A stretch of DNA of 4,888 nucleotides from a virus (Duplodnaviria > Heunggongvirae > Uroviricota > Caudoviricetes). The stretch lies in the IMG/VR virus record IMGVR_UViG_2667527898_000022; one strand, written 5' to 3'. The position numbers and the translations under genes are program-made. Shown here in pieces: positions 1,508 to 2,950 of this stretch (the first letter of the stretch is position 1; the number at the start of each line of letters is the position of its first letter). Below the pieces are notes generated by a model. That model had not been told where the DNA came from. It saw only the letters and a program-made list of their open reading frames with translations, and made no database searches.

Positions 1508-2950
1508 TTACGCTATCCGCTGGAAAAGAGTAATAAAGTTAAACATCGAGTTCTTTCCTCCTTGCATTCCTTCTGGCATCAGATCAATATATGCGGCGGG
1601 TTTAAATGCCCGCCACACCCCCGGAATGTCCTCCTCCAGTTTCAAAAACCAGATTTGATTTGGTGTTGATGCGCCTGTTTGTGTTGTCTGTATTGAAATC
1701 AGATCAATGGAGCTACCCTGAATGTTTTCATATATCCCTGATGAAAATAAGCCTTCGCCGTCAGCATAGACAGAGGACACGCCAAAAACATAAGAACCAA
1801 CCGCATATTTCCCGGTGGAAACATTGCCGTCCCTTCCGGCAACCCCCTGTGGGCCTGCCGGGCCAGCTGGTCCCTGCGGACCTGCAGGTCCTGTATCACC
1901 TTTTTGACCCCGGGGTCCGGCCGGGCCTGCATCACCTTTGGGACCAGCTGCACCAGCCGGTCCCCGTGGGCCTGCGGGCCCCACTGCACCAGGTGCGCCA
2001 GGTTCCCCCCTGTCCCCCTTCGGTCCGGGGACTGCTGCCCGGGTTGCTGCCTCTTCTGCCTTCGTTTTTGCTGCCTGCACTTCTGCCATTACCGCTTTCA
2101 CAGCCTTTGGGGTTGCCGCTTTTGTTTCATCATCGCTGTTGGTATCGCTGCTCAGCTGTACAACACCTTTCTGTGATGTGCTGGCATCCGGAACACTGGC
2201 GACACTGCCTGCGGGACCCGCAGGACCTGCGGGGCCGGTTTCTCCCCGAGGGCCTGCGGGACCTGCCGGACCTGTTGCGCCGGGTTCACCTTTATCCCCT
2301 TTCGGGCCGGTTTGCCCTGCCGGCCCCTGTGGTCCGGCCTCTCCACGTGGGCCGGTGTCACCTTTCGGCCCCGGCGGTCCGCCCGGGTCACCTTTATCGC
2401 CCTTCGGTCCCTGTGGACCTGTTTCTCCCCGTTCTCCCTTTGGCCCCGGCTCACCTTTTGGTCCGACCGCCCCCGTTGCCCCGGCTGGTCCCTTTGCCCC
2501 TGTGGCACCCTGTGGACCTGTGTCCCCCTTCTCGCCCGCCGGTCCCCGGGCATTCTCTGCCCGTTTCTTCGCTTCCTCTGCACTCGCCGCCGACGCTTCA
2601 GCACGCTTCAGGATTTCCGCTGCCACCGCTTCCAGCTCTGCAAGCGCTTTCGGGTAATACTGCGCCTCATCCTGTTCCATCAGAAATTTATTCAGCGTTC
2701 CCGGCTCAGAATCCGCCTTCACCAGAATGTCACCCACATACGACGGGGCGTACCCTTCCGTGTTCAGCGTCACCCGGTACCACCCCGGCTCCACATCAAA
2801 ACTGTAACTGCCGGTTTCCCCCGGCTGCCCCTGCGCCACCGTGGTGACAATCACTGTCTCCGTGGTGCGCAGGGCTTTCAGTTCAATGGTGCATCCCGGT
2901 ACCGGCTTCCCGGTGCCGTCCTTCAGCACGCCCGATATTCTGACTGTCAT
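1508..2950 (-). CDS. stf: side tail fibre protein with lambda-Stf-like N-terminal anchor domain, two collagen-like Gly-X-Y tracts, a conserved central fibre motif and a short distinct C-terminal tip domain (480 aa)
   Basis: ATG 2948-2950, TAA 1508-1510. N-terminus [26 protein letters not shown]... closely resembles the N-terminus of lambda Stf and E. coli prophage side tail fibres ([17 protein letters not shown]..., from memory). Residues 136-248 and 309-375 are Gly-X-Y repeats. The central [25 protein letters not shown] motif is characteristic of enterobacterial prophage fibres. Confidence 0.95.
1826..2026 (-). repeat. collagen-like Gly-X-Y tract 2 of the tail fibre (22 uninterrupted triplets, residues 309-375)
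   Basis: Glycine at every third position in the translation; the DNA is GC-rich and internally repetitive. Confidence 0.85.
2207..2545 (-). repeat. collagen-like Gly-X-Y tract 1 of the tail fibre (~37 triplets, residues 136-248, one interruption at G190-G-P-P-G194)
   Basis: Glycine at every third position except a one-residue insertion near residue 191; rich in P, K, E, A, T at the X and Y positions. Confidence 0.85.

Follow-up and report, generated by a model that had tools for sequence, protein, structure and literature searches.

Ghosh et al. 2012 (PMC3368898) distinguish four architectures, named EPclA to EPclD, among the collagen-like proteins encoded by E. coli prophages. EPclA has been studied experimentally by CD, MALLS and EM, and is a trimer with a collagen CD spectrum that forms dumbbell-shaped molecules of ~55–60 nm (PMC3368898). 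The EPclC architecture runs PfN-Col-Pf2-Col, usually lacks PCoil and ends in a C-terminus unrelated to PfC; ORF-401 of P-EibA (479 aa, Col 117 + 75) is given as its example, and a GxPGGPxG break is conserved in the first collagen tract (PMC3368898). The last ~30 residues of PfN have coiled-coil character (Ghosh et al. 2012, PMC3368898). In Ur-lambda, 12 Stf N-terminal domains form a collar around the gpV/gpM junction, three of these domains feed each trimeric fibre via ~10-residue linkers, and the four side fibres touch the cell ahead of the central fibre (PMC12617516). DUF4376 proteins are known as partners of phage fibres: gp27 of Alteromonas phage V22 is essential for active fibres (PMC7289586), the H-fibre of Campylobacter CJIE1 requires its DUF4376 partner (PMC7882524), and A5 gp9, modelled in complex with its fibre, has been read as a transient cap (PMC10579305). 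In the A5 and V22 models, β-strands of the chaperone pair with a β-strand of the fibre head, outside the α-helical trimer core (PMC10579305).

The stretch of DNA analysed here (the window) is one whole small contig of 4,888 bp. It holds an intact 480-aa ORF with an ATG start and a stop codon at positions 1508..2950 on the minus strand (ORF listing), which its reading frame, Pfam, PHROG and protein identity mark as a stf-like side tail fibre gene of EPclC architecture. The protein matches Pfam phage_tail_N (PF08400) over the full length of the model (residues 1–134, E = 7.3e-42), Collagen (PF01391) in four stretches (E = 2.2e-27) and Phage_fiber_2 (PF03406) at residues 257–298 (E = 3.3e-16); its best PHROG is phrog_366, 'tail fiber protein' (E = 2e-108). 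Five parts follow one another: a Stf-type anchor, collagen tract 1, a Pf2 motif, collagen tract 2 and a 105-aa tip. A sequence-only reading made before these searches had proposed a Stf-type attachment domain followed by a collagen shaft, to be given up if collagen and phage-fibre domains were missing; both match strongly in Pfam. The same reading held that the architecture was not new, citing EHEC prophage collagen-like proteins, and the layout is indeed published as EPclC, with P-EibA ORF-401 as the type example. The window fibre has every sequence feature of that class: PfN, Col-Pf2-Col with the GxPGGPxG break, a non-PfC end and, in place of a long PCoil, only a ~40-aa helical segment ahead of the first tract.

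Identity of the fibre is 99% to WP_249756311.1 (E. coli UPEC-245U), 85% to P-EibA ORF-401 and 82% to the PhiR5_1 fibre, and nearly all of the differences from these three proteins fall within the last ~130 residues. A protein with the identical 480-aa sequence is on public record, encoded on an E. coli assembly contig of 4,888 bp at NCBI. The fibre itself is already known, and it is a new allele of a published architecture. ORF-401 of P-EibA (E. coli ECOR-9, GenBank AF151091) has the same order of parts and nearly the same length (479 versus 480 aa), and residues 1–340 are almost identical in the two proteins. It differs in its tip, which is 41% identical, and in the N-domain of the accompanying chaperone (44%), and the window collagen tracts are a few triplets shorter (113/67 versus 117/75 aa).

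The surroundings of the gene are also those of P-EibA, where J lies on one side of the fibre gene and a DUF4376 gene (ORF-191A) and eib on the other. In the window, the central tail fibre gene J is represented by its 3′ part at 3320..4888 (minus strand; Pfam Ig_J_second, Phage_Tail_Tip and Ig_GpJ_C), which is open across all 523 codons to the window edge and shares 98.5% identity with the NCTC9112 prophage. The fibre gene is followed downstream by a DUF4376 gene and then by an Eib/YadA-type adhesin gene, whose start lies at 95..3. The order in the window is thus J, a gap, fibre, DUF4376 and eib, and lom, which stands between J and the fibre gene in P-EibA, UPEC-245U and PhiR5_1, is absent upstream of the fibre. 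The gap that replaces it holds a degenerate hok/sok-like element.

The anchor (residues 1–91; 2678..2950, minus strand) matches residues 1–91 of the Ur-lambda 'tail fiber protein' (PDB 9E7M chain Ta) by phmmer with E = 3.6e-28, which together with the PF08400 match bears out the Stf-type attachment domain of the earlier reading. By tblastn, the anchor is 55–59% identical to lambda and lambdoid Stf and was found in 314 phage records, at ~55–59% identity to the lambda group. By homology, the window fibre should therefore be attached in the same way as Ur-lambda Stf (collar domains ~55–58% identical), and the same first-contact role as a side fibre would be expected of it; the two fibres also share a Pf2-type repeat and a position downstream of J. 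The likeness ends at residue ~100, where the window fibre departs from lambda into a helical stretch of ~35 residues and then collagen. This Ala/Glu/Lys-rich segment (residues 96–135; 2546..2665, minus strand) lies inside the PF08400 match and is likely to form a short trimeric coiled coil ahead of collagen tract 1. Lambda Stf, in contrast, has a long shaft of coiled-coil/beta structure whose distal part resembles T4 gp37 and binds OmpC, and its chaperone is Tfa; the window shaft is collagen, its tip is unrelated, and beyond the Pf2 motif no Pfam or PDB match to a Stf-type distal shaft or receptor-binding end was found in the window fibre.

The shaft consists of two collagen tracts with a conserved motif between them. 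Tract 1 (residues 136–248; 2207..2545, minus strand; PF01391) spans 113 aa and, by script count, 38 Gly-X-Y triplets, arranged as 19 + 19 in two registers that are shifted by one residue at GDPG-GPP-G (GDPGGPPG, residues 187–194). Tract 2 (residues 309–375; 1826..2026, minus strand; script count and PF01391) spans 67 aa and 22–23 triplets, so that the ~37 and 22 triplets estimated earlier were right. Together the tracts hold 60–61 triplets, 11 of them KGD/KGE; both are 34% Gly, 20–21% Pro and 18–21% charged, in keeping with the long Gly-X-Y repeats of high Pro and charged content that characterise PF01391. If fully extended, they would measure ~32 nm and ~19 nm by calculation, at 0.286 nm per residue. 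The motif between them, noticed and correctly quoted in the earlier reading, is Pf2 (phage tail fibre repeat 2; residues 257–298; 2057..2182, minus strand), which is followed by a short Ala-rich helix up to residue 307 and also matches residues 106–154 of Mu tail fibre protein S (PDB 5YVQ, E = 5.6e-4). By analogy with EPclA, the window fibre would be trimeric and its tracts would form triple helices. EPclA and EPclB (PfN-PCoil-Col-PfC; Stx and O157 prophages) share with it the PfN anchor, the collagen shaft and the prophage side-fibre position, and EPclB also contains Col-Pf2-Col. They differ in having a PCoil of ~110 aa and an end in PfC (PF06820), and after their fibre genes comes an 89-aa ORF, with a PfC of its own, rather than a DUF4376 gene.

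The tip (residues 376–480; 1511..1825, minus strand) ends in ...TLFQRIA, agrees with the letters quoted in the earlier reading and is presumed to be the head that trimerises the fibre and binds the receptor. It gave nothing at E ≤ 10 apart from noise against Pfam, no match at E ≤ 10 against PDB sequences, no match by tblastn in 50,697 phage records and no relative among GTDB species representatives. An exhaustive phmmer search of 1.84 billion cluster representatives, which is blind to close tip relatives because the clusters that take in full-length fibres are represented by proteins with other tips or by partial proteins, returned five weak multi-stretch matches in long proteins, none below 1e-10, and we treated these as spurious. 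Word-indexed searches with the tip found partial E. coli proteins only. The ~105-residue domain that had gone unrecognised in the sequence alone thus has no counterpart in Pfam or the PDB, and no well-characterised receptor-binding domain, let alone an identical one, matches it. The suggestion that it may be uncharacterised stands. The tip is not unique: of 5,426 complete E. coli genomes, 13 carry its DNA at 100% identity, six IMG/VR contigs encode the tip protein at 97–100% identity, and it belongs to a set of at least five related types.

Alignment with related tips places the window tip as type A of a family that occurs in E. coli and Citrobacter (types A–E). Type A shares the 41% identity given above with type B, the tip of P-EibA, 21–26% with the type C tips of PhiR5_1, NCTC9112 and STEC17-183, 26% with type D, from a Citrobacter werkmanii PfN-PCoil-collagen fibre, and 25% with type E, from a fibre without collagen of an E. 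coli P2-like myovirus. Types D and E were reached by tracing DUF4376 homologues into other genomes. Common to all five are PGxW, a hydrophobic strand of the form x-G-[ST]-[YF] and a C-terminal [LI]F[QE]R, which reads LFQR in four types and IFER in type E. Types A–C were used to build an HMM that scores type D at 23.9 bits and type E at 18.3 bits, and neither score was reached by any of 3000 shuffles. The same HMM led us to reject a Salmonella PfN fibre tip (L016) that is similar by eye (1.2 bits, with 211 of 3000 shuffles as good). Homology to PfC was also rejected, with an hhalign probability of 0.3%, a PfC score of −0.9 bits against the tip HMM and no PF06820 match in the tip. The tip is therefore an uncharacterised member of a small, unannotated and previously undescribed domain family. 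An AF2 monomer model of it is all-beta but unreliable (pLDDT 47.9), the underlying alignment holding 11 sequences of three types.

An 11-nt gap separates the fibre stop codon from the DUF4376 gene (903..1496, minus strand), which encodes 197 aa and is identified by PF14301 (E = 2.4e-21; 76.7 bits against a cut-off of 25) and PHROG 1141. The exact protein is WP_044786920.1. A chaperone gene had been predicted downstream of the tip; it is there, of the DUF4376 class rather than the lambda Tfa class, PF14301 being the only Pfam match and the Tfa domain (PF02413) giving none. The protein falls into a variable N-domain (residues 1–84; 1245-1496, minus strand), delimited by comparing identity across loci, and a conserved DUF4376 domain (residues 85–197; 906-1244, minus strand; PF14301, 97–99% identity within E. 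coli). Its AF2 model (pLDDT 92) has three N-terminal β-strands followed by long helices and a β-hairpin; in BFVD, this fold has matches among the DUF4376 proteins of many phages, and against PDB folds it gave only generic prefoldin/Skp-like matches, which are not decisive. A fibre gene and an adjoining DUF4376 gene are paired in seven loci. Like V22 gp27, A5 gp9 and the CJIE1 partner, the window protein has a C-terminal DUF4376 domain and a variable N-terminal part, and is encoded directly after the fibre gene, in a fibre-plus-chaperone module common to phages of different morphotypes; by this analogy it would be the chaperone of the adjoining fibre. The chaperones are alike at the level of the family only, the V22, A5 and CJIE1 fibres carry knob and lectin-like head domains without collagen, and the role established by experiment in those phages is assigned to the window protein by homology.

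Taking these parts together, we consider the protein highly likely to be the side tail fibre of an E. coli prophage that is lambda-like and carries Eib. Three chains would assemble into one fibre, with residues 1–91 of each docking as a collar domain at the junction of tail tube and tip, as in Ur-lambda Stf. The short helical segment and two collagen triple helices would stand in for the long Stf shaft, the Pf2 knob serving as a joint. The 105-residue C-terminal domain would be the distal head, which probably nucleates and registers the trimer and, at the surface of the host, probably binds the primary (reversible) receptor; in this way the tip probably picks the host. The conserved helical C-terminal domain of the DUF4376 chaperone would trimerise, and as the fibre folds the variable β-strand N-domain would pair with its cognate head, perhaps capping it for a time. 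Head and chaperone N-domain would be exchanged as a cassette by recombination in collagen/Pf2 on one side and in DUF4376 sequence on the other.

The division of labour within this model could be different. The tip might serve only as the nucleus that trimerises and registers the collagen helix, as the PfC of EPclA, which is a trimerisation domain by experiment (PMC3368898), and receptor contact might lie elsewhere, for example in a DUF4376 protein retained as an adhesin or cap. The A5 and V22 chaperones have been proposed as transient caps, TfaMu is reported to stay on the Mu fibre, and the chaperone N-domain equals the tip in variability, as expected of an exposed surface under selection. However, trimerisation and receptor binding are not mutually exclusive roles for the tip; GFP-tagged A5 and V22 fibres bind cells, and their head domain is taken as the receptor-binding part (PMC10579305); and fibres that are nearly identical elsewhere differ strongly in the tip, as receptor-binding ends typically do. 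We regard an exclusively structural tip as unlikely.

We also considered that the gene, although intact in appearance, is a remnant of a defective prophage and no longer used. The window is a lone 4.9-kb contig, lom has given way to the gap with its degenerate hok/sok-like element, and the equivalent fibre gene is annotated as a pseudogene in some genomes (EC2). Against this, the fibre ORF, the chaperone gene and the 3′ part of J are all open, the tip is conserved in the 13 genomes and six contigs given above, and the plaque-forming PhiR5_1, which has the same shaft, is recorded as propagated on E. coli C, so disuse appears quite improbable. Still weaker, and in our view very improbable, is the idea that the protein is a non-virion 'moron', a collagen-like protein that the lysogen secretes or displays on its surface and that acts on an animal host as streptococcal Scl or Legionella Lcl do: the adjacent eib does encode a genuine surface adhesin of the lysogen, Ghosh et al. 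(PMC3368898) raised links of EPcl proteins to virulence, and the fibre shows sub-threshold NCBIfam similarity to the Scl1/Scl2/Lcl collagen-like adhesins, but these scores are far under the cut-off (120 versus 325 bits) and limited to the collagen repeats, the protein has a Stf collar domain at its N-terminus and lacks a signal peptide or membrane-type anchor, and its gene lies between J and the fibre chaperone in a late structural operon.

For the side tail fibre with its exchangeable head, comparison of loci by blastn located the exchanged segment. PhiR5_1, NCTC9112 and STEC17-183 match the window on both flanks (about 906/919 to 1275, and from 1903/1913 onward) at 81–98% identity and do not match it in between; in P-EibA, the divergent gap is 1248-1791. 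The blastn mosaic thus delimits an exchangeable cassette at 1276..1912 (minus strand) in which the last stretch of collagen tract 2 lies together with the tip and the N-domain of the chaperone. The E. coli loci agree at 97–99% identity in the chaperone C-domain; the N-terminal ~80 residues of the chaperone are only 29–44% identical and change with the tip type, each type having its own N-domain. Wherever tip A occurs, one and the same chaperone N-terminus follows it, and this holds for two fibre anchors: with that N-terminus, tip A also ends a 671-aa fibre with a different anchor. The prophages that encode this longer fibre are podovirus-like, since they encode a SU10-type adaptor and an N4-gp56-type capsid. 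In these SU10-like loci, blastn identity to the window runs from the start of eib through the chaperone and the tip and ends in collagen tract 2 (~1990) or at the tract 1 break (~2381). Where SU10-type fibres have PfC-like ends, their DUF4376 proteins carry a different, longer N-domain.

This pattern fits a swappable module of ~0.6 kb, tip plus chaperone N-domain, exchanged between conserved flanks. It does not prove functional co-adaptation of tip and chaperone, because the variable parts are physically adjacent and pairwise identities of tip and chaperone N-domain show no significant correlation (rho = 0.29, p = 0.42 over 10 pairs); the pairing could reflect simple physical linkage. More tentatively, we propose that LFQR-ended tips and DUF4376 N-domains form an undescribed family of self-contained host-range cassettes in Enterobacteriaceae, found on the fibres of lambda-like siphoviruses, SU10-like podoviruses and P2-like myoviruses, and in E. 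coli often next to eib. Swaps would occur in frame via collagen/Pf2 and the near-invariant DUF4376 sequence, and collagen might serve both as a shaft of adjustable length and as a recombination linker tolerant of register.

Side-fibre tips decide which strains a temperate phage adsorbs to, and therefore shape the spread of prophage cargo, here Eib adhesins and elsewhere Stx. Members of the tip family are found on fibres of three tail morphotypes, in every case together with a cognate DUF4376 chaperone, and the family has no Pfam entry. Its fold and receptor, once defined, would fill an annotation gap. The ~0.6-kb cassette would also offer a compact module for retargeting engineered lambda-type phages or tailocins.

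Present annotation of such proteins goes no further than 'prophage tail fiber N-terminal domain-containing' or 'collagen-like protein, partial'. Two plus-strand ORFs that overlap the fibre gene, 1606..2847 (413 aa) and 1938..2657 (239 aa), were rejected as genes; they are Pro/Gly/Arg-rich antisense readings of collagen codons. RNA folding revealed a terminator-like hairpin (2971-2999) followed by U8 (2963-2970), together 2963..2999 on the minus strand and 12 nt upstream of the fibre ATG. It folds at −22.5 kcal/mol (z = −4.15), and none of 200 shuffles folds as well. If this hairpin acts as a terminator, as its form suggests, expression of the fibre would depend on read-through.

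Where relatives carry lom between the central tail fibre gene J and the side tail fibre gene, the window instead has a 370-bp gap (2951-3319), whose sequence matches E. coli NCTC9112 at 100% identity. Searching Rfam with this gap gave a full-length yet below-threshold match to the sok antitoxin family RF01794 at 3109-3268 on the minus strand (32.5 bits versus a gathering score of 59; E 1e-4). Immediately 3' of this match, on the same strand, a small ORF (3020..3103; ...VICITVVLIIWITHRSLCEFRFRIAPF) matches Pfam HOK_GEF over threshold (25.7 versus 22 bits), with neither an ATG nor the usual C-terminus. 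The segment at 3020-3268 (minus strand) is a type I toxin-antitoxin locus resembling hok/sok, which may be degenerate.

Between this locus and the fibre, a strong minus-strand hairpin followed by U8 (2963-2999; RNA folding energy -22.5 kcal/mol, z -4.15) stops 12 nt short of the start codon of the fibre gene, on its upstream side. This hairpin could terminate the transcript of the hok-like locus or of J, in which case expression of the fibre may rely on late-operon antitermination. Within J itself, residues ~300-437 of the listed ORF (window 3320-3760, minus strand) match Pfam Ig_GpJ_C (E 8e-11), and the match spans only positions 15-77 of the 135 in the profile. Given this partial coverage, the C-terminal receptor-binding part of J may not be like the end of lambda J that binds LamB.

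The tip of the window fibre is also found on another anchor. An identical block of tip, DUF4376 chaperone gene and eib occurs in E. coli G1/2 (locus L004, 5001-7016) and EC2 (locus L005, 5001-6776), where it sits on a different fibre anchor in prophages with an SU10 adaptor and N4-gp56 capsid. In RefSeq the EC2 fibre has pseudogene status, with the remark 'missing C-terminus', and the tip there carries no annotation. In the window, the eib end comprises the 5' start of a gene for a trimeric autotransporter of the Eib/YadA type (3-95, minus strand), which continues past the left edge and reads MSKKFTKTVLSTALAGVFLGISFGGIAANKQ (EibA counterpart, MSKKFTKAVLSAAMAGVLFGVSF...), preceded by an AT-rich non-coding stretch of ~800 bp (96-902; 35-43% GC) that is conserved among Eib prophages. 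Public copies of the window fibre, as seen in its protein cluster, are mostly collagen-like fragments marked 'partial' whose contigs are very short, short-read assemblies evidently being broken by the collagen repeats. The protein representing the 90% cluster is itself a fragment, of 289 aa. Such fragmentation keeps these tips out of sight in searches of cluster representatives.

EPclA-type fibres in Stx1a phage Stx1_EH1995 (L014) and at a second locus (L015) are followed by an 89-aa ORF in place of the DUF4376 gene. The L014 ORF (3825-4094), on which PF06820 was scanned, contains the full PfC domain (E 3e-35); its L015 counterpart (3816-4085) was compared by size, which is the same. The 89-aa ORF might encode a small PfC-like partner or chaperone. 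A P2-like prophage of Salmonella enterica (L016, 251-4603) has two fibre-DUF4376 pairs in succession. The first fibre is P2 H-type; the second, of 447 aa and free of collagen, has the lambda Stf-type PfN anchor, which places a lambda-type side-fibre anchor in a myovirus.
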